Position numbers and translations under genes: made by a program. DNA of 64,000 nt from an uncultured Microbacterium sp. GTDB lineage: Bacteria; Actinomycetota; Actinomycetes; Actinomycetales; Microbacteriaceae. Positions 35,644-43,795 of this stretch are shown piece by piece (position 1 is the stretch's first letter; each line of letters opens with the position of its first letter). The stretch is from contig NZ_CAMFHZ010000006.1 in NCBI RefSeq assembly GCF_945952435.1, positions 83,183 through 147,182 of the forward strand, read 5' to 3'. Below the pieces are notes generated by a model that was not told the DNA's origin, made no database searches, and was given only the letters and a program-made list of their open reading frames with translations.

Positions 35644-36534
35644 TCAGTCCCAGAGCGGATCCTGCGGAACCGCGAGATAGCCGGCGCGGAGCTCGTCCCG
35701 CAGGCTCGGTCGGGACGGATGCCAGCCGAGACGCTCCCTGGCACGGTCGGCTCCGGCGTGCTGGTCCAGCAGGAGCAGTTCGGCGAGCGCCGGATGGATC
35801 CGCGGCGCGGCCTCCGCGACCGTCTCCGCCTGCGTCGCGCCACCCACCGCGGACGCGGCGGCCTCTGCGAGTTCCCCCACGGTCGGGGCGTCGTCGTTCG
35901 CCGCGATGTAGAGCTCGTTGTTGTGCGATTCGGCACCGACGATCCGCACATACAGGTCGGCGAGGTCGTCCACGTGCACCGTAGCCCAGTGCTGTGCGCC
36001 ATCGCCGAGGTATGGGACGACCGTCGATCCGTCGCTCGTCCGCGCATCGTCCACGAAGCGCCGCGGGATGCCCTGTCCGTGGCCGTAGACCACCCCGGGG
36101 AAGACGATGACGGAGCGGACCGACTCCTGCGCCATCAGGCTCTTCTGCATGTCCACCATCCACGACACCGCGGCGGGCGGACGCTGCGGGGACCGCTCGG
36201 TGAGGTCGCGGCCGGATCCGAACGTCCAGAGGCTGCTGGTGTAGATGAACGGCTTGTCCCCGTTGGTCAGCCCCGGCGTGATCGCCGCGATGAACTCGGC
36301 GTCGCCCGCGTGCGACGTGGCGGTGTGGATCACGCCGTCCGATTCCAGCGCGAGCGCGTCGAGCGTGCGGGAGTCGTCCTCGTCCGCGAAGAACGCCTCC
36401 GCCCCTGCCGCCTGCACCTCCGCCGCCTCGTCCTGGTCCTCGACGAGCGCGGTCACCCGATAGTCGGCCGCGAGGAGAGCGTTCATCACCCCCCGCCCGA
36501 GGAAGCCGGTGGCTCCGGTCAGCAGCACGCTCAT
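35644..36534 (-). CDS. NAD-dependent epimerase/dehydratase family protein (atypical/extended SDR)
   Basis: 296 aa. N-terminal VLLTGATGFLGRGV. Confidence 0.75.
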   Translation of the reverse strand: MSVLLTGATGFLGRGVMNALLAADYRVTALVEDQDEAAEVQAAGAEAFFADEDDSRTLDALALESDGVIHTATSHAGDAEFIAAITPGLTNGDKPFIYTSSLWTFGSGRDLTERSPQRPPAAVSWMVDMQKSLMAQESVRSVIVFPGVVYGHGQGIPRRFVDDARTSDGSTVVPYLGDGAQHWATVHVDDLADLYVRIVGAESHNNELYIAANDDAPTVGELAEAAASAVGGATQAETVAEAAPRIHPALAELLLLDQHAGADRARERLGWHPSRPSLRDELRAGYLAVPQDPLWD

Positions 36535-36722
36535 CTTGTCCTCCTCGTGGGCCCTCGCGGTCCGGTCTGCGTCCGACGCTATCCGCCGCCCGGCCCGGCG
36601 ACAAGGGTCGGATCCCCGTGCCGGAACGACGCGCCGTGGCGTCCGCTGGTCAACGGATCGCCCGCGGAGTACCGTCGCTCCCAGCGGGCGCGCCCGGCCC
36701 GCCCGGAACGAGGGAGTGCAGA

Positions 36723-37385
36723 ATGAGCGATCACGCCGACAGGGTCTCCGCCGCGCTGATGGGGTCGCCGGCTCCCCGAGACCTCGCCTGGACGGACTTC
36801 GTCATGCTCTGGAAGGAGCGTGCGGACGAAGTCGAGGAGGAGTCGGGAGATCGCCTGGCCGTGCGCATGAACGGCCACCGGGTCGTCTTCCGGCGCCCCC
36901 ACGACGGCGTGGTCTCGATCCAGGACGTCGAGGACGCCCGCCACCTGCTGACCGCGCAGCCGGTCGAGAAGGGCGAAGGACGTCTCCTCGCCGTCACCAT
37001 GGACGACGAGCGGGCCCGCATCTGGGATTTCGATCTCGACGCGACGACGGTCCAGGACGAGACGCACACCCTGCGGGACGGGGATCCGCGGGCGCATCAC
37101 CTGCGCACGGTCGAGCGGCACACCGGGCGCGACGACGAGCGCGACCTCGTGCACTACTTCGACGAGGTGGCCGATCGGATGCAGACCGAGTTCGCGGGCC
37201 GCCGATTCGTGCTGTTCGGTCACGGCGACGGCACGTCGGATGCGGCCGCGCTCTTCGCCGCGCGTCTGCGCAAGGAGCATCCGCTCGTCGCGGGCGCGAT
37301 GATCGCCGAGGAGCGGATCGACCTGAGCGCCGCCACCCCTGCCGACATCGAGGCGGCGGCGCAGAAGGCCGCCGCCCGGGGCTGA
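36723..37385 (+). CDS. Hypothetical two-part cytoplasmic protein (220 aa), no confident family assignment
   Basis: Lies in ORF 36618..37385(+). ATG 36723 is preceded by gagggag. Third-codon positions are mostly G/C. The C-terminal part (ARIWDF ... HYFDEVADRM ... RFVLFGHGDG) loosely recalls host-attachment/eRF1-like proteins. Confidence 0.6.
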   Translation: MSDHADRVSAALMGSPAPRDLAWTDFVMLWKERADEVEEESGDRLAVRMNGHRVVFRRPHDGVVSIQDVEDARHLLTAQPVEKGEGRLLAVTMDDERARIWDFDLDATTVQDETHTLRDGDPRAHHLRTVERHTGRDDERDLVHYFDEVADRMQTEFAGRRFVLFGHGDGTSDAAALFAARLRKEHPLVAGAMIAEERIDLSAATPADIEAAAQKAAARG

Positions 37386-37692
37386 CCGGCCCTCACCGCA
37401 ACGGGCCGTATTCCGCGGCCGCGGCCGCGACGCGGTTGTTGTAGTGGCCGGAAGCAGGCGATCAACGCTCGGCGCCGAGCACGTCCGTTCGACACCCGCA
37501 GCGCAGGGTGCCCCGGGCGGCGAGATGTCCGCGGCCGTGCCGGTGGGCGCGGGCGAGGGACGCCTGCGCGGATCCTCCGCTCGGGCGTTCCGCGGAACGG
37601 CGAGACCCGGAGCGCCCGGGCGGGCGGGAGATGCGTCGTGCGTGCGTGCTCGGCATCTCGTCACCACCCTCGCGTCTCATCGCGTCATCCCC

Positions 37693-37727
37693 GTTATTTA
37701 GCATGATTCTCGTTTTCGTTAATGATC
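37693..37727. promoter_or_regulatory. AT-rich island with promoter-like hexamers and a degenerate Zur-like half-site
   Basis: gttatttagcatgattctcgttttcgttaatgatc. TTAGCA-N17-AATGAT on the + strand. Minus-strand cgagaatcatgctaa matches 10/15 of the box at 40000. Confidence 0.3.
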
Positions 37728-37798
37728 CGGCCCGGCGATGCAACTCCTGTCAAGTCGAGTGCGACGCAGCGATTCACCGCGAAGGATGCGGCTGTTAT

Positions 37799-37813
37799 TG
37801 AGAACGGTTGTCA
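37799..37813. promoter_or_regulatory. Zur-type (Fur-family) palindromic box upstream of the COG0523 gene
   Basis: tgagaacggttgtca = TGAgAAC-G-GTTgTCA, within the extended palindrome ttattgagaacggttgtcagtaa. It lies 13 nt upstream of ATG 37827. Confidence 0.7.
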
Positions 37814-37826
37814 GTAAGCTGGCGGG

Positions 37827-38852
37827 ATGATCCTGCCTCGCGTTCCGGTCGTCGCCGTGACGGGGCATCTCGGCGCGGGTAAGACGAGCCTGCTCAACCA
37901 CCTGCTGCGCGCGGAGGGCGCACGGATCGGCGTGGTCGTGAACGACTTCGGCACGCTGAACGTCGACGCGGCCCTGGTCACCGGTCAGATCGACGAGGCC
38001 GCGGCCATCTCCGGAGGTTGCGTGTGGTGCCTCCCCGACGCCGGCGGCTTGGACGAGGCCCTGGAACGCCTCTCCCACCCCCGCCTCCGCCTGGATGCGA
38101 TCGTGGTGGAGGCCAGCGGCGCGGCGGACCCCGTCGTCCTGGCGAGACTGATCCGGTTCAGCGGCGCCGAACGCGTCAGGCCCGGCGGCGTGGTCGAGGT
38201 GATCGACGCGGTCGAGCACTTCACCACCGTCGACACGCGCGAGGCCCCGCCCCTGCGCTATCGCGCCGCGACCCTCGCCGTGATCGGCAAGAGCGACCTG
38301 CTGCCGCCGGACGAGCGCGCACGCACGGTCGAACGGATCCGACACCGCATCCGGGAGAGCAATCCACGGATCCCCGTCCTCCTCGCTCGCCACGGCGGCA
38401 TCGACCCCGCACTGGTCTTCGATGTCGCGGAGCACGCGGATCCCGCCGACCAGCTGCCGATCGCCGCCCTCCTGCGGGAGGAGGCGCACGACCACTCGCC
38501 CGGGCACGCGCACGCGCAGGCGACGTCGATCGCGCTGCGCGGGCCCGTCGCGCCCGGAGCCCTGGTCGATTTGCTCGAAGATCCGCCGCCAGGCGCCTAC
38601 CGGATCAAAGGACGCGTGCGCGTTCGTACTCCGAGGGACGATCGCGGGTACGTGGTCAACGTCGTCGGGCGCATGCTCCACATCGCCGCGTTGCCCGAGC
38701 CGCCGCGCGACGGAGAGCTCGTCGCCATCGGGCCGATGCTCGACCCCGTCGAGGCGCATCGGCGGCTGGCCGCCGTGCTCGACGCTCCGTCCGCGGCCCC
38801 CGATGCCGCCGGGCTCAGGAGACTCCGGCGGCATCGACGCCTCAGCGAGTGA
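37827..38852 (+). CDS. COG0523/CobW-family G3E GTPase (putative zinc metallochaperone)
   Basis: 341 aa. P-loop GHLGAGKTS, EASGAADP, GKSDL. His-rich linker EEAHDHSPGHAHAQ. CobW_C-like domain YRIKGRVRV. The metal motif is GCVWC instead of GCxCC. Confidence 0.85.
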   Translation: MILPRVPVVAVTGHLGAGKTSLLNHLLRAEGARIGVVVNDFGTLNVDAALVTGQIDEAAAISGGCVWCLPDAGGLDEALERLSHPRLRLDAIVVEASGAADPVVLARLIRFSGAERVRPGGVVEVIDAVEHFTTVDTREAPPLRYRAATLAVIGKSDLLPPDERARTVERIRHRIRESNPRIPVLLARHGGIDPALVFDVAEHADPADQLPIAALLREEAHDHSPGHAHAQATSIALRGPVAPGALVDLLEDPPPGAYRIKGRVRVRTPRDDRGYVVNVVGRMLHIAALPEPPRDGELVAIGPMLDPVEAHRRLAAVLDAPSAAPDAAGLRRLRRHRRLSE

Positions 38853-38928
38853 CGTGCCCGTGCCCCCGGTGCGGCGATCCGTCAGGGGACGCGCGCGGCG
38901 TAGGCGACCGTCGCCTTCGTCGACGCGA

Positions 38929-39819
38929 TCAGGTGCGGGACGCGCGAGCGATGGACTCGATCGACGCGTCCAGGGTGCGGGTGAACTCGTCGTCGCTCTG
39001 CGACACGGCCAGGCCGTCGAGCAGCGCACGGCTGAAGCTCGCGATCACGCCGGGATTCCGCGCCAGACGTGCGTTCGCCTCGTCCCGGCCGTACCCGCCG
39101 GAGAGCGCGACGACGCGCGCGACCCTCGGATGGTCGACGAGCTCCCCGTAGAAGCCGTCGACGCTCGGCAGGGTGAGCTTGACGGCGACCCTCCCCGCCT
39201 CCGGGAGCGCGTCCAGCTGCGCGAGGAGCTGCGCTTTCAGGAGTTCCTCCGCCCGTTGCTTGTCGGGGATGCGGATGTCGATCTCCGGTTCGAGGATCGG
39301 CACGAGTCCCGCCGCCAGAACGTGCTCGGCGACCTGGATCTGCTGCGCCACCACCCTCGCGATGCCGATCGGGTCGGCGGCATGGACGAGCGACCGCTCC
39401 TTCGTGCCGAACACGCCGCGGTCCGCGGCGTGGGCGAGCAGACCGTCGAGATCGTTGATCTCACGCATCGTCTGCACGCCGTCCCGGGGATCGTCGAGTC
39501 CGTGATCGATCTTCAGGAAGGGCAGGATCCCCTTCACCTTCCACAGGTACGCAGCCACGCCGATCCCGTCGACCGTCCGATCGAGGGTGCCGTCGAACAG
39601 GATCGCCCCCAGGATGCGATCCCCGGTGAAGGCCGAGCTGGTGAGGACGCGGGAGCGGGCGGCGTGGATGCGCTCGAGCATCTCCTCCTCGTCGCGATAC
39701 TGCGACTCGTCGACGCCATAGCGCCGGAGCGCGTCCGGCGTGCTTCCCCCGCTCTGGTCGAGCGCGGCGATGAAGCCCCTCCCCTTCTCGAACCGGGCGA
39801 GCTGGGCGGCGTCGGGCAT
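38929..39819 (-). CDS. Class I (Schiff-base, metal-independent) fructose-bisphosphate aldolase
   Basis: Lies in ORF 38929..39861(-). MPDAAQLARFEKGRGFIAALDQSGGSTP, PFLKIDHGL, FGTKERS, LVPILEPEI, VAVKLTLP and VALSGGY align along the whole length with staphylococcal-type class I Fda. An alternative GTG start is at 39861. Confidence 0.85.
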   Translation of the reverse strand: MPDAAQLARFEKGRGFIAALDQSGGSTPDALRRYGVDESQYRDEEEMLERIHAARSRVLTSSAFTGDRILGAILFDGTLDRTVDGIGVAAYLWKVKGILPFLKIDHGLDDPRDGVQTMREINDLDGLLAHAADRGVFGTKERSLVHAADPIGIARVVAQQIQVAEHVLAAGLVPILEPEIDIRIPDKQRAEELLKAQLLAQLDALPEAGRVAVKLTLPSVDGFYGELVDHPRVARVVALSGGYGRDEANARLARNPGVIASFSRALLDGLAVSQSDDEFTRTLDASIESIARASRT

Positions 39820-39863
39820 CGGCAGGTGCTGGGGGCCTCGGCGGGCCGGTCTGGCAACCACGC

Positions 39864-39986
39864 TCAGCCCTGTCGGCCTTTGAAGCGCGGGTTGAGCTTG
39901 TTGATGACGTAGACCCGCCCTCGGCGGCGCACCACCTGGGCTCCGGGCTGATTCTTGAGGGATTTGAGGGACGCACGGACTTTCAT
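39864..39986 (-). CDS. rpmJ: Ribosomal protein L36, cysteine-free (C-minus, zinc-independent) paralog
   Basis: Not in the ORF track (40 aa). Read by hand: [40 protein letters not shown]. It has no Cys or His zinc ligands, like YkgO-type L36. SD aaggag lies upstream. Confidence 0.85.
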
Positions 39987-39999
39987 GATGACTCCTTAC

Positions 40000-40014
40000 T
40001 GAGAATGATTATCA
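40000..40014. promoter_or_regulatory. Zur-type palindromic box in the divergent L36 / COG0523-like promoter region
   Basis: tgagaatgattatca = TGAgAAT-G-ATTaTCA. It lies 13 nt from the L36 start codon and 48 nt upstream of ATG 40063. Confidence 0.75.
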
Positions 40015-40062
40015 TTCGCTAGCATACGAGGCACCAGACAAAAGATGAAAAGAGGGACGCGC

Positions 40063-41094
40063 ATGGAACCGGTCGGCGTGATCGCGGTGGTGGGCGCAGG
40101 CGACACGGAACGAGGCGGCTACGCGACCGCACTGGCGCACCGGACGAACCGGGCGCTCATCCCCGCGTCGCGGCTGTCAGGATCTCCCGATCCAGCGCAG
40201 GAGGCCGCCGTGCTGGCGTCCTGGACCGACGTCCCGGAGGGCGTCGTGGTCGACATGCCCGACGAGGTGCCCGCGGGCGAGATCATCGGCACCTTCGTCG
40301 ACGTCGAGCAGGGGAGCACCCTCCTCGGCATCGTGTGCGTCGTCGACGCGGCACGAGTGCGCGACGAACTGCGACGGGTGGACGACGTGCCGCTGAGGGA
40401 CAGGGACAGCGGTATCGCCGCCCTGCGGGAGTCGCGCGCACGGCTCACCGCGTGGCAGATCGAGTTCGCCTCGACGATCGCGCTGGTGAACTGGTCGACT
40501 CTGGCCGCCTCGGAGCTGTCGCTCATCGCGTCGCTGCTGAGTCATCTGAGCCCCCGCGCGCGTCTACGCTTGCACGGCGGTATCGTGGAGCGCCTCGTCT
40601 CGGACGACGCCTACGCGGTGGAACAGGACCGCCCAGGATGGATGTGCCTTCTCAACGAGAGCTTCGATCCCCCGCTGACGGATCCCCGGGTGTCCGCCCT
40701 GCGCTACGAACAGGTCCGCCCGCTGCATCCGGGGCGCCTGGCCCACCTCCTGGACGCGCGGATCGAGCCGGGAGAGTTCGGCACCGTGGTGCGCTCCGCC
40801 GGATTCTGCCGTCTCGCGAGCCGCGGCGGCATCGTCGCGCAATGGGAGCACGTCGGGTCCGTGATCTCCCTCAATCCGGTCGCCGTCGACGCGCGACTCG
40901 ACGATGCGGACGAGATGCTCTCCCTCGGACAGGACCTCGCGTTCGTCGGGATCGACCTGGACCGGGACGGTCTCGTCGCCGCGCTGGACGAGGCCGCACT
41001 CACCGATGCCGAACTCGCCGAGGGCCCCGAAGCCTGGGCGAGGTTCGCCGACCCGTTCCCCACCTGGGCGACGGCATCCGATCGGCAGGACTGA
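40063..41094 (+). CDS. Degenerate COG0523/CobW-like protein (predicted pseudo-GTPase) retaining a CobW_C-like domain
   Basis: ORF 40045..41094(+). ATG 40063 is preceded by agaggga. The P-loop position reads VVGAGDTERG (no Lys-Ser/Thr). There is no CxCC. The NKxD position reads VNWS. The C-terminal part (VRSAGFCRLASRGGIVAQWEHVGSVISL ... LAFVGIDLD) resembles CobW_C. Confidence 0.65.
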   Translation: MEPVGVIAVVGAGDTERGGYATALAHRTNRALIPASRLSGSPDPAQEAAVLASWTDVPEGVVVDMPDEVPAGEIIGTFVDVEQGSTLLGIVCVVDAARVRDELRRVDDVPLRDRDSGIAALRESRARLTAWQIEFASTIALVNWSTLAASELSLIASLLSHLSPRARLRLHGGIVERLVSDDAYAVEQDRPGWMCLLNESFDPPLTDPRVSALRYEQVRPLHPGRLAHLLDARIEPGEFGTVVRSAGFCRLASRGGIVAQWEHVGSVISLNPVAVDARLDDADEMLSLGQDLAFVGIDLDRDGLVAALDEAALTDAELAEGPEAWARFADPFPTWATASDRQD

Positions 41095-41201
41095 ACGCCC
41101 CGGCGCGTGTGAGGCACGAGACGCGGCAGGGGTGCGTCGCGCACGACGCACCCCGGGCGTGCAGGAGCGTTCGACGCGCTCCGCGAACGGTTCCGACCGA
41201 C

Positions 41202-41846
41202 TCAGTGCTCGTCGTAGTGGTCGCCGTGCTGCGCGTGCTTGTGGCCGTCGTGGAGATAGTCCACGTGCCCGTCGTGCTCGACGGTGTCGTGACCGCAGTC
41301 GGCGCCGTGCGCATGGTCGGCGGGCGTGTGCTCCGCCACCGACTCGTGCTCGTCGTAGTGGTCGCCGTGCAGCGCGTGCCGGTGCGTGCCGTGCACGTAG
41401 TCGACATGGTCGCCATGAGGCACTGCCTCGTGGCCGCAGGCCGCCCCGTGCTCGTGCTCCGCGGCGGTGTGCTCGGCGTGGACGTCGGTGTCGGTCATGA
41501 TGACCCTTTCTCTATTGATGGGCGGTGCGGAGGGTGACGCTTGCGGAATCGCGGCCTGAGTTTCCGCAGTTTCCCGGACGTGCGCGAGCGCATCGGCGAT
41601 GACGTGGCTGACATGCAGATCCGCGAGCCGGCAGATGACCTCCTTGCCGCTTCGCTGCGATGTGACCAGCCCCGCCTGGCGCAGGGTCCGCAGATGCTGG
41701 GACACCAGCGGCTGCGACATGCCCGTCGCCTCGACCAGCGCTCCGACCGTCCGCGGCTCCTGCCCGATCGCGTGCAGAAGCTCCAGTCTCGACGCACTGC
41801 CCAGCACTTTGAAGAGTTCGGCAGCGGCGGCGATTCCCCGATTCAT
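41202..41846 (-). CDS. ArsR/SmtB-family metalloregulator with alpha5-type metal site, fused to a C-terminal tandem His/Cys-rich domain
   Basis: Lies in ORF 41202..41918(-). ATG 41846 is preceded by ggagg. HTH LFKVLGSASRLELLHAI ... SQPLVSQHLRTLRQAGLV. ADLHVSHVIADALAHVRE fits DxHx10Hx2E (SmtB D104/H106/H117/E120). No stop occurs before the tail, which has 25 His and 2 Cys in 94 aa. Confidence 0.8.
   Translation of the reverse strand: MNRGIAAAAELFKVLGSASRLELLHAIGQEPRTVGALVEATGMSQPLVSQHLRTLRQAGLVTSQRSGKEVICRLADLHVSHVIADALAHVRETAETQAAIPQASPSAPPINRERVIMTDTDVHAEHTAAEHEHGAACGHEAVPHGDHVDYVHGTHRHALHGDHYDEHESVAEHTPADHAHGADCGHDTVEHDGHVDYLHDGHKHAQHGDHYDEH
41205..41486. repeat. Tandem duplication (2 x 141 bp) encoding the 47-aa His-rich unit
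   Basis: The 25-mer gtgctcgtcgtagtggtcgccgtgc occurs at 41205-41229 and 41346-41370. The protein units both end HVDYxHxxHxHAxHGDHYDEH. Confidence 0.85.
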
Positions 41847-41910
41847 GATCTTTTCCTCCATACGACCATACATATAAATATATTGCAATGTGTCGATAGA
41901 GTTGGGAATC

Positions 41911-41952
41911 GTTCTCACTCGGGGCGCCGACGTCGAAGCCCCGAGTGAGAAC
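41911..41952 (-). terminator. Terminator hairpin downstream of the ABC-F gene
   Basis: Perfect 14-bp stem: gttctcactcgggg (41911-41924) pairs with ccccgagtgagaac (41939-41952). Confidence 0.6.
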
Positions 41953-41986
41953 GAGTCGCCGGTCGAGGCGGTCCCGGCGCAGGCGC

Positions 41987-43795
41987 TCAGCCGAGTCGCT
42001 CTGTGAGGTCGAACCAGCGGAGCTCGAGCTCCGAGACCTCGTCCTCCTGCGCCGTGATCGCCTTCATCCGCTCCCCCAGCCCCGCGTAGTCGGACTGGTC
42101 GTGGTCGGCGAGCGCGTGCTTCGCCTTCTCGACCTCGCCGTTCAGCTTCTCCATCCGCCGTTCGAGCGCCGCGAGCTCCTTCTCCGCGGCACGCCGATCC
42201 GCCCCGGTCAAGACGGCGCTGCCGGACGCGGCGGCGGGATCCGGGCGCCCTGCAGACGCGTCGGGGAGCTGTGCCCGCATCCGCAGATACTCATCGACGC
42301 CGCCCGGGAGATGCCGGAGACGCCCCGAGCCATCCGGTCCCGGAAGAATCGCGTACTGCTGATCCGTCACCCGCTCCAGGAAGTAGCGGTCGTGCGAGAC
42401 GACGAGCAGAGTGCCCGGCCAGGAGTCGAGCAGGTCCTCGATCGCGGCCAGCATGTCGGTGTCCATGTCGTTCGTCGGCTCGTCGAGGATCAGCACGTTC
42501 GGCTGGTCGAGCAGCACGAGCAGCAGCTGCAGGCGCCGCTGCTGACCGCCCGACAGATCCTTGACCGGAGTGGACAACTGCGCCGACGAGAAGCCCAACC
42601 GTTCGAGCAGCTGCCCCGGGGTGAGCTCGGCCGCCTTCGATCCCGTGCCGAAGGTGTAAGTCGTGCGGAGGCGCCCGATCACGACCCGCACGGGCTCGTC
42701 CCACACGTCCTGCAGCTCATCGAGGCGCTGTGTGAGCGTGCGCACCTGCACGGTCTTCCCGTGCTTGACCCGTCCGGAGGTCGGCGCGACCGTGCCGGAC
42801 ACGAGTCCCAGCAGCGTCGACTTCCCCGCACCGTTGACGCCGAGGATCCCGGTGCGCTCGCCCGGCGCGATCCGCCACTCGACGTCGCGGAGGACGTCCC
42901 TGTCCCCGAAGCGCACGCCCGCGTCGACGAGGTCGACGACGTCCTTGCCCAGGCGAGAGACGGCGAGCGACTGCAGAGCGATCCGATCGCGGATCTCCGG
43001 GACGTCGGAGATGAGCGCGTTGGCGGCGTCGATCCGGAACTTCGGCTTCGAGGTGCGGGCCGGGGCGCCGCGGCGCAGCCAGGCGAGCTCCTTGCGGGCG
43101 AGGTTCTGACGCTTCGCCTCCGTGGCGGCGGCCATGCGGTCGCGCTCGACGCGCTGCAGGATGTACGCGGCGTATCCGCCCTCGAAGGGCTCGACGATCC
43201 TGTCGTGCACCTCCCAGGTCTCCGTGCAGACCTCGTCGAGGAACCAGCGGTCGTGCGTCACGACGAGCAGGGCGCCCTGGTTCGCCGGCCAGCGCCTCTT
43301 GAGGTGAGCGGCGAGCCACGTGATGGCCTCGACGTCGAGGTGGTTGGTCGGCTCGTCGAGGGCGAGCACGTCCCAGTCGCCGGCGAGGAGCCGGGCGAGG
43401 GCGACGCGGCGCCGCTGGCCGCCGGACAGGTCCGCGACCGAGGCGTTCCAGTCGAGATCGCCGACGAGCCCCTCGATCACATCGCGGATCTTCGCGTCAC
43501 CGGCCCACTCGTGCTCCGGCGCCTCTCCGACGATGGTCCGCCCGACCGTGAGCGCATCGTCGAGCACGTCCGCCTGATCCAGGACGCCGATCGTGGTGCC
43601 TCCGCGCACGGTGACCCGGCCGCGGTCCGGCTCGCGCCGCCCGGCGAGCATCGCGAGGAGGCTGGACTTGCCGTCGCCGTTGCGGCCGACGATCCCGATC
43701 CGATCGCCCTCCTCGATCCCGAGGGTGAGGGAGTCGAAGACCACGCGGGTGGGGAACTCGAGGTGGAGGCCTTCGGCCCCGAGGAGATGTGCCAT
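41987..43795 (-). CDS. ABC-F family ATPase (Uup/EttA-like, no transmembrane domain)
   Basis: 602 aa. Two ABC cassettes (GRNGDGKSS and GVNGAGKST, with LSGGQRRRVALARL and LSGGQQRRLQLL) and a C-terminal coiled-coil. Confidence 0.9.
   Translation of the reverse strand: MAHLLGAEGLHLEFPTRVVFDSLTLGIEEGDRIGIVGRNGDGKSSLLAMLAGRREPDRGRVTVRGGTTIGVLDQADVLDDALTVGRTIVGEAPEHEWAGDAKIRDVIEGLVGDLDWNASVADLSGGQRRRVALARLLAGDWDVLALDEPTNHLDVEAITWLAAHLKRRWPANQGALLVVTHDRWFLDEVCTETWEVHDRIVEPFEGGYAAYILQRVERDRMAAATEAKRQNLARKELAWLRRGAPARTSKPKFRIDAANALISDVPEIRDRIALQSLAVSRLGKDVVDLVDAGVRFGDRDVLRDVEWRIAPGERTGILGVNGAGKSTLLGLVSGTVAPTSGRVKHGKTVQVRTLTQRLDELQDVWDEPVRVVIGRLRTTYTFGTGSKAAELTPGQLLERLGFSSAQLSTPVKDLSGGQQRRLQLLLVLLDQPNVLILDEPTNDMDTDMLAAIEDLLDSWPGTLLVVSHDRYFLERVTDQQYAILPGPDGSGRLRHLPGGVDEYLRMRAQLPDASAGRPDPAAASGSAVLTGADRRAAEKELAALERRMEKLNGEVEKAKHALADHDQSDYAGLGERMKAITAQEDEVSELELRWFDLTERLG

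Follow-up and report, generated by a model that had tools for sequence, protein, structure and literature searches.

A conserved family of COG0523-derived proteins with degenerate GTPase motifs, encoded next to zinc-free ribosomal protein L36 at a predicted Zur operator

This study concerns a gene at positions 40063-41094 (+) of a 64,000-nucleotide stretch of contig NZ_CAMFHZ010000006.1 (assembly GCF_945952435.1) from an uncultured Microbacterium sp.; the whole stretch is referred to as the window. As judged from its open reading frame (ORF), its CobW_C domain and its homologs, the gene encodes a 343-residue pseudo-GTPase that derives from the ZigA clade of the COG0523 zinc metallochaperones. 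It lies divergently from the gene for a type-B, cysteine-free ribosomal protein L36, with a Zur-type palindrome between the two, and a second COG0523 gene, with its GTPase motifs intact, is located at 37827-38852 behind a Zur-type box of its own. The protein may act, independently of nucleotide, as an adaptor linked to zinc-free ribosomes.

Gene, fold and loss of the GTPase motifs

Residue and motif numbers refer to the 343-residue window protein translated from ORF 40063-41094. The frame is unbroken. Another possible ATG is present at 40045; the start at 40063 is preceded by a Shine-Dalgarno sequence (GAGGGA, 5 nt upstream) and is backed by the N-termini of homologs. This ORF alone, on either strand, shows a coding-like GC profile at the locus, and its GC content at third codon positions (GC3) is 0.86, compared with 0.85-0.96 in neighbouring genes. 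An identical copy of the protein was found on 9 contigs in the homolog search. The protein contains no lysine, against a median of 2.35% Lys in the other ORFs of the window; in the 117 aligned family members on which all column counts are based, the median is one lysine per protein of about 343 residues, and 41 have none. One idea is that this scarcity reflects avoidance of lysine-directed tagging (pupylation) in Actinobacteria. The net charge of -24 (family median -20) is the same as in ZigA-type proteins and is therefore uninformative as to any chaperoning of the basic L36.

A Pfam scan returned CobW_C alone (PF07683; residues 211-311, 40693-40995, +; E 1.3e-8; 35.1 bits, cut-off 22), which bears out the recognisable CobW_C-like C-terminal half described in the original prediction, made from the sequence without database searches. 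The cobW nucleotide-binding domain PF02492 gave no match in Pfam at E <= 0.1; the neighbouring 37827-38852 protein matches both domains. The best-scoring NCBIfam model was that of ZigA (NF038288), at 89.4 bits against a cut-off of 600 and over model positions 125-309 only, and the Mrf model (NF047431) reached 52 bits against a cut-off of 375, over positions 134-305 only. Structure prediction of the protein alone, one of the checks originally proposed, gave a confident AlphaFold2 (AF2) model from a 56-sequence family alignment (pLDDT 88, pTM 0.88). Its top Foldseek matches in the PDB were entries of Escherichia coli YjiA (4ixm, 4ixn and 1nij; E 5.5e-12 to 1.6e-11, probability 1.0), the best spanning about 367 aligned columns, and because of these matches we assign to the model the two-domain fold of COG0523 proteins. 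YjiA (PDB 1NIJ, 4IXM) is the only solved COG0523 structure; although it is the best fold match, it shares only 14-16% identity with the target, the TM score is only 0.37-0.40, and YjiA is an active GTPase with a CxCC motif. A search of PDB sequences with the family profile found no COG0523 chain and one chance granulin match at E 0.2.

The nucleotide- and zinc-binding motifs were mapped by hhalign profile-profile alignment with the family of the 37827 protein and by MAFFT alignment with ZigA-type COG0523 proteins. Both place the Walker A motif (G1, GxxGxGK[ST]) identically, over G11-A-G-D-T-E-R17-G18 (40093-40116, +; G-x-C-x-P-E-R-x in the family), where the lysine is replaced by arginine (R17) and the Ser/Thr by glycine (G18). 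The P-loop is thus destroyed, as had been proposed; the register chosen by eye, in which GAGDT was set against GAGKT, is three residues off, but the conclusion that the lysine has been lost stands. Helix 1 of the AF2 model begins three residues too soon, at residue 14, which argues that the phosphate-binding loop has collapsed. At the Walker B (G3) position, V-V-V-D64-M-P66-D (40243-40263, +; MAFFT with ZigA-type sequences), the ExxG motif has become D64-M-P-D, with the acid retained and the glycine gone. The switch-I/CxCC beta-hairpin, which comprises about 45 residues and should precede G3, is missing according to MAFFT; in the hhalign alignment, the Walker B strand is paired with the CxCC strand and the gap falls at Walker B. 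We favour the MAFFT reading because 31 residues separate the acid from the aspartate of 'VDA' in the target, and 32 do so in the 37827 protein. The target has just three cysteines, C92, C195 and C249, which form neither CxCC nor CxxC, in line with the Cys motif having been reported as absent.

In place of the G4 motif NKxD, both alignments show V142-N-W144-S145 (40486-40497, +), the replacement named in the original prediction, although their registers differ at this motif. The RxKG motif reads R244-S-A246-G247 (40792-40803, +), so that the arginine is kept and the lysine lost. According to a 2026 preprint (PMC13001444), RxKG, located in beta-2 of the COG0523 C-terminal domain, is the only invariant motif of such domains, its arginine serving as arginine finger and its lysine being catalytic. 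The changes at G3 and RxKG and the absence of lysine had gone unnoticed in the original prediction. We also considered whether the G motifs are present but shifted; since the target has no lysine, they cannot simply lie elsewhere in the sequence. COG0523 proteins have been defined by homology together with CxCC and a P-loop GTPase domain (Haas 2009). The target has lost Walker A, CxCC, ExxG, NKxD, RxKG and PF02492, and retains CobW_C (PF07683) and a YjiA-like two-domain fold. We infer that the protein is unable to bind nucleotide.

These features are common to a family. A word-indexed search yielded 288 homologs; among the 120 listed, every one carries PF07683 only, and those named by their source are mostly called 'GTP-binding protein', a label that is almost certainly wrong for this family. 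With E < 1e-3 as threshold, an exhaustive profile search returned 2,642 cluster representatives (50% identity), of which 167 had E < 1e-30. Full-length core members number about 100, none of them with Walker A or CxCC. When one genome per species was scanned, 179 species had a relative of the target, and the best 80 loci were studied. All 80 belong to Actinomycetota, in the genera Microbacterium, Leucobacter, Gulosibacter, Kocuria, Nesterenkonia, Rothia, Brevibacterium, Arachnia and Acidipropionibacterium, and further in Nocardia, Gordonia, one Mycobacterium and Saccharopolyspora.

The replacement motif G-x-C-x-P-E-R at the former P-loop is shared across the family (G11 in 116 of the 117 members, C13 in 112 or 96%, P15 in 102, E16 in 114, R17 in 116). 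From G3 to the 'VDA' strand, E64 (113), P66 (114), C92 (115), D95 (116) and H98 (111, 95%) are conserved, followed by E134 (117/117), S137 and W144 (115/117 each). H222, R244 and G247 are present in all 117, C249 in 114 and A246 in 97; H263 and D102 are also conserved. None of the 117 contains G.{4}GK[ST], C.CC or [NT]KxD, and C..C occurs in one. Conservation of the degenerate motifs in orthologs had been suggested as a check, and GxCxPER, E64, P66, W144 and R244 indeed proved conserved. The conservation of R17, which aligns with the Walker A lysine, could indicate an atypical switch, in which nucleotide or a phosphorylated ligand is bound non-canonically with R17 standing in for that lysine and R244 as the finger; the Walker B acid and the RxKG arginine are retained as well. 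Yet the phosphate-loop glycines are replaced by x and Glu, a proline lies inside the loop, helix 1 begins early in the model, and the Mg-binding Ser/Thr, the G3 glycine, NKxD and switch I are all gone, so that we regard such a switch as very unlikely.

The gene is under purifying selection and appears to encode a functional, conserved protein. Compared with its seven nearest orthologs, the window gene has a ratio of nonsynonymous to synonymous substitution rates (dN/dS) of 0.25-0.40. Frameshifts and decay in orthologs were looked for and none were found: across the 80 loci the matched segment has no stop codon, the length is uniform and the frame unbroken. A decaying pseudogene or functionless relic of the lineage might be suspected given that the window copy departs from the family at 11 of 117 conserved columns (family median 6), including C13G, E64D and H98R. 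Set against this are the intact frames and dN/dS values, the native GC3, the Shine-Dalgarno sequence, the promoter-like site and Zur box described below, and the identical protein on 9 contigs; we give this explanation hardly any credence, and the original assessment of an intact frame with native codon usage, not an obvious pseudogene, is upheld.

Descent from the ZigA clade and the rebuilt P-loop

With a hidden Markov model (HMM) of ZigA-type proteins, the target reached 168 bits, compared with only 77 bits for the 37827 protein. The target shares with ZigA-type proteins the 'VDA' strand, QxEFA, the RPxHPxR region and the '[FL]xxLATR' strand, as well as a C-terminal tail of the form LLTDxE...GPxxW...DPFPxW found in canonical members. 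The final motif, D-P-F-P-x-W (41050-41067, +), is near-invariant at D330, P331, F332, P333 and W335; in the AF2 model the tail has low confidence (mean pLDDT 66 for residues 331-340 and 39 for 341-343) and is probably flexible. DPFPxW looks like a docking peptide. On these grounds the target can be placed as a derivative of the ZigA-type metallochaperone clade. It resembles the zinc metallochaperone GTPases ZigA and ZagA (YciC), which form cluster 1 of the sequence similarity network, in its predicted Zur regulation, two domains, shared motifs and RxKG arginine. It differs from them in lacking Walker A, the CxCC hairpin, the G3 glycine, NKxD and the RxKG lysine, in having [PH]-[LM]-T-D-P-R where ZigA-type proteins have PETEEY, and in its low score on the ZigA model (89 bits against 600). 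Six other ZigA-clade relatives of about 340-380 residues from the exhaustive profile search (P0336, P0343-P0345, P0354 and P0361) either keep Walker A without CxCC, reading RSRG, or have neither motif. Degenerate derivatives of the ZigA clade are therefore not rare, which suggests that several independent degenerate COG0523 lineages exist.

The original prediction had treated the 37827 gene as an intact paralog and proposed that the target might regulate it. The motifs quoted for the 37827 protein are all present in its sequence. Close paralogy, however, did not hold: BLASTP between the two proteins gave a non-significant E = 0.89, the hhalign probability was 28%, the ZigA HMM separates them, and the 37827 protein ends in RRLRRHRRLSE, unlike the tail of the target. 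The two belong to the same superfamily and to the same zinc island, each with a Zur-type box, but the 37827 protein represents a separate subfamily with intact G1, G3, G4 and RxKG. Only some 10 of the 80 related loci have a 37827-type gene at a distance of 6 kb or less, so that nothing indicates regulation of that GTPase by the target, and this role is without support. Residues 65-68 of the 37827 protein (38019-38030) read C65-V-W67-C68, that is, CxWC rather than CxCC. In its own family, CxCC is present in 117 of 120 sequences and tryptophan at the middle cysteine occurs in this protein alone; an identical copy of the CxWC-bearing sequence is found on 9 contigs.

A related possibility, which turns the original idea towards another partner, is that the target is a natural dominant-negative or decoy form of a ZigA-type chaperone. 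Occupying the client or docking site with its C-terminal domain and DPFPxW tail, it would either keep hold of a client or modulate some active COG0523 GTPase. The domain and tail are indeed common to canonical ZigA-type proteins, MigC with engineered RxK mutations behaves as a dominant negative in cells (PMC13001444), and at a distance of 1.2 kb there is an active COG0523 gene behind a Zur box of its own. But this neighbouring GTPase is of another subfamily with another C-terminus and is seldom near the family, and ORF clustering revealed no ZigA-type gene conserved near the family, L36 being the sole conserved neighbour. We therefore find a decoy role rather improbable.

At the former P-loop, the family shows a co-varying set of residues. 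Co-variation was analysed in 198 family sequences, in which C13 and H98 occur together in 151, C13 only in 10, H98 only in 4, and neither in 33. C13, E16 and H98 are mutual best co-varying columns (phi 0.75-0.84), and P15 and D102 couple less tightly with them (phi 0.50-0.64); the presence of C13 correlates at 0.56 with overall conservation. C13 and E16 follow strand 1, where helix 1 begins, and H98 and D102 are one turn apart just past the 'VDA' strand. With ordinary P-loop topology, the four residues would face the former nucleotide/Mg site, and a metal site is a reasonable reading of this Cys/Glu/His/Asp cluster in the family. The window protein has departed from it: in the 'CVVDA' strand and the following helix (40327-40368, +), C92 and D95 are retained and R98 and E102 replace H98 and D102, and G13 and D64 take the places of C13 and E64. 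Its closest relatives (62-69% identity) retain C13. Since the 37827 protein also carries its private CxWC, both COG0523-type proteins of the zinc island have privately lost a family-conserved cysteine. Arginine recurrently replaces H98 in members without C13, and we speculate that a salt bridge through Arg98 stands in for the metal in such copies.

Given this cluster, the family could consist simply of GTP-independent zinc binders (a buffer, sensor or passive metallochaperone) that use a new Cys/Glu/His/Asp site and have no ribosomal role, with C92, H222, C249 and H263 as further possible ligands. The conservation of all these residues, the strong co-variation of C13, E16, H98 and D102, the ancestry among zinc chaperones and the binding of up to three zinc ions by Mrf (PMC7431043) speak for such a function. 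However, the window protein lacks C13, H98 and D102 and yet is still under purifying selection, C13 is missing in at least 37 other family representatives, and no member retains the high-affinity CxCC site. The core function therefore does not depend on the C13 site, and we consider zinc binding as the whole function unlikely.

Zur-type boxes, type-B L36 and the surrounding genes

The palindrome between the L36 gene and the target gene (39999-40018; core TGAGAAT-G-ATTATCA) scores 30.3 bits on a position weight matrix (PWM). It contains the Zur-type box TGAGAATGATTATCA at 40000-40014; a second box, TGAGAACGGTTGTCA at 37799-37813, lies within a strong site at 37798-37817 ahead of the 37827 gene. 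These two boxes are the only pattern matches in the 64 kb, with 0.00 expected by chance, and the only sites above 20 bits on the PWM, a result that is partly circular, since the matrix itself was derived from these palindromes in the related loci. Both have the 7-1-7 palindromic architecture of the actinobacterial Zur type, and their assignment to Zur rests on what we take to be the Streptomyces coelicolor and mycobacterial consensus, together with gene content; palindromes of this kind have been described in a review. The target and the 37827 gene had been placed under the same Zur-type box. The type is indeed the same, but there are two separate boxes and not one shared. A weaker Zur-like site (about 15-16 bits) is found at 37697-37722, approximately 100 nt upstream of the 37798-37817 box, so that the 37827 gene may have two operators. 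The box at 40000-40014 overlaps the spacer and -10 element of the only promoter-like site of the region (39988-40015, +; -35 ATGACT, 16-nt spacer, -10 TATCAT; 1 found, 0.0 expected in shuffles).

The type-B L36 gene (39864-39986, -; 40 residues; NF002021, 80.9 bits, cut-off 70) is not a peculiarity of the window, and it is the conserved partner that the original prediction had missed. In 73 of the 80 related loci, such a gene lies divergently upstream of the homolog with the palindrome between them, and the palindrome retained upstream of the homologs has a median PWM score of 33.5 bits. None of the 74 L36 copies, from these loci and the window, contains a cysteine; being 85-100% identical, they are too conserved for a co-phylogeny test with the target. 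In two genomes with two copies, those of M. marinilacus (loci L003 and L030) and Frigoribacterium JB110 (L042 and L080), each copy has its own L36 gene, and the family-L36 pair therefore appears to duplicate as a unit. All-vs-all ORF clustering over 4.5 kb in the 80 loci, the list from which was noisy with antisense high-GC ORFs, gave no conserved neighbour besides L36. The target and L36 are predicted, from the arrangement of their operator, to be made under Zur control in zinc starvation.

Directly downstream of the L36 gene is a class I fructose-bisphosphate aldolase gene (38929-39861, -; NF003784, 422 bits, cut-off 392). The same L36-aldolase arrangement is seen in about 12 related loci of Microbacterium type and once, rearranged, in Mycobacterium sp. 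141. L36 and the aldolase are probably on one Zur-controlled transcript, and the class I enzyme would replace the zinc-dependent class II enzyme without needing zinc.

On the other side, the target gene converges with a gene for an ArsR/SmtB-family regulator (41202-41918, -). The 107-nt region between them folds at -61.7 kcal/mol (z = -2.3) and contains an 11-bp GC-rich hairpin (41129-41154), a candidate terminator without a T-tract. The regulator has a C-terminal extension of two His-rich repeats of about 45 residues (41205-41336 and 41346-41477; pattern ...HG..CGH..V.H..HVDY.H.GH.HA.HGDHYDEH), the DNA copies of which are 74% identical. A similar arsR gene is located just downstream of the homolog in approximately a quarter of the 80 loci, and others have a stand-alone His-rich ORF. 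Between the arsR start and the end of an ABC-F gene (41987-43795, -; ribosome-binding ATPase family) is a 52-bp near-perfect palindrome (41906-41957), with two 26-nt arms that are 88% complementary and have no spacer. Termination, binding of ArsR or both are possible functions of this palindrome, which is overlapped by a weak Zur-like site (15.5 bits, 41902-41921). Kocuria, Gulosibacter and Leucobacter likewise have an ABC-F ortholog (64-74% identical) adjacent to or near the homolog, at eight loci (L018, L021, L023, L027, L039, L046, L048 and L057). This synteny, which extends over two bacterial families, could be inherited from an ancestral arrangement or point to a functional link. The zinc island is immediately preceded by a 255-residue ORF of coding-like composition (36618-37385, +), which has no match in Pfam or NCBIfam. 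A scan of 36500-42500 with Rfam gave no match.

Comparison with Mrf and proposed role at the zinc-free ribosome

The closest functional precedent is Mrf, the Mpy recruitment factor, which the original prediction did not mention. M. tuberculosis Rv0106 has been described as 'COG0523-like', without both GTPase motifs and with CxSC (Haas 2009, PMC2770081), and its M. smegmatis ortholog MSMEG_6069 is Mrf (PMC6094098, PMC7431043). Under Zur, the mrf gene is expressed together with the operon of zinc-free (C-) ribosomal proteins. Its product binds to 30S and needs neither ATP nor GTP to recruit Mpy, a hibernation factor (PMC6094098, PMC7431043). Zinc-bound Mrf is degraded via ClpS/ClpP through its C64xxC67/His site (PMC7431043, PMC6094098). 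The target resembles Mrf in ancestry, G-loop loss, predicted Zur control and adjacency to a zinc-free ribosomal paralog (PMC2770081, PMC7431043, PMC6094098, PMC11052692). It differs from Mrf, as far as the NCBIfam model and the published description allow comparison, in scoring only 52 bits on NF047431. Mrf keeps CxxC (C64/C67) flanked by four histidines, whereas the target family has this region deleted and GxCxPER at the P-loop, and the mrf gene is in an S14/S18/L28/L33 operon, whereas that of the target family is divergent from L36. Ten 'intermediate' relatives and the two neighbouring COG0523 genes were scored on the Mrf model as well, and none reached its cut-off. By these sequence comparisons, the target family is best regarded as separate from Mrf. 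Our literature search, which did not cover the 2021 sequence-similarity-network study, found no paper on it. The concept of a dead COG0523-like ribosome factor is, however, already known through Mrf, and this precedent limits the novelty of the family.

The reading we prefer, albeit with a little less than even confidence, is that the target is an adaptor, induced via Zur and independent of nucleotide, with a link to the zinc-free ribosome and specifically to type-B L36 (L36B). A ZigA-type ancestor would have kept its two-domain fold, CobW_C, the RxKG arginine and the DPFPxW tail, and would have lost G1, the G3 glycine, G4, the lysine of the C-terminal domain and the CxCC site along with the switch-I hairpin. 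In zinc starvation, Zur would leave the box, and the target and zinc-free L36 would be expressed from the two arms of one control region. The protein would then bind the ribosome or ribosomal proteins without nucleotide during the switch to zinc-free ribosomes, and help to install or stabilize type-B L36 or recruit another factor, in a manner analogous to the action of Mrf on ribosomes with zinc-free (C-) proteins; the ribosome association itself is suggested by this analogy. In most members, C13, E16, H98 and D102 may bind zinc and render the protein zinc-sensitive, while the window copy, with G13, R98 and E102, would rely on Zur alone.

Several points weigh against this L36-linked adaptor. 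The Mrf score of the target lies far below the cut-off of that model, and also below the 89 bits obtained with ZigA, so that any Mrf-like function would have to be convergent or very diverged. Mrf works on 30S, whereas L36, the product of the partner gene, belongs to 50S. Seven of the 80 loci, for instance in Kocuria, carry the Zur box without an L36 gene. Type-B L36 also exists in bacteria without the target family, such as E. coli with ykgO, and the target is therefore not generally required for L36B. The adjacency to L36 could reflect merely a shared operator, and the proposed metal site derives from co-variation and P-loop topology.

In a bolder version, which we hold to be doubtful, a ZigA-type zinc chaperone would have been converted for a second time, and independently, into a ribosome factor that works without nucleotide and, in this family, is dedicated to L36. 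Its P-loop would have been rebuilt as a Cys-Glu-His-Asp zinc sensor, lost again in the window copy, where Arg98 would take the place of the metal, and in many Actinomycetota it would, during zinc starvation, escort zinc-free L36 or install it, or else remove the zinc-bound form so as to release its zinc.

Bacterial COG0523 proteins under Zur control still lack any known client (PMC11672702). Mrf is the only Zur-regulated COG0523 protein with a defined mechanism, and is itself GTPase-dead and acts on the ribosome. A second dead family, widespread and nearly always paired with L36, offers a concrete partner to test and supports the idea that the ZigA clade acts on ribosomes. It also illustrates how a P-loop may be turned to another use, with GxCxPER co-varying with a distant His/Asp pair.

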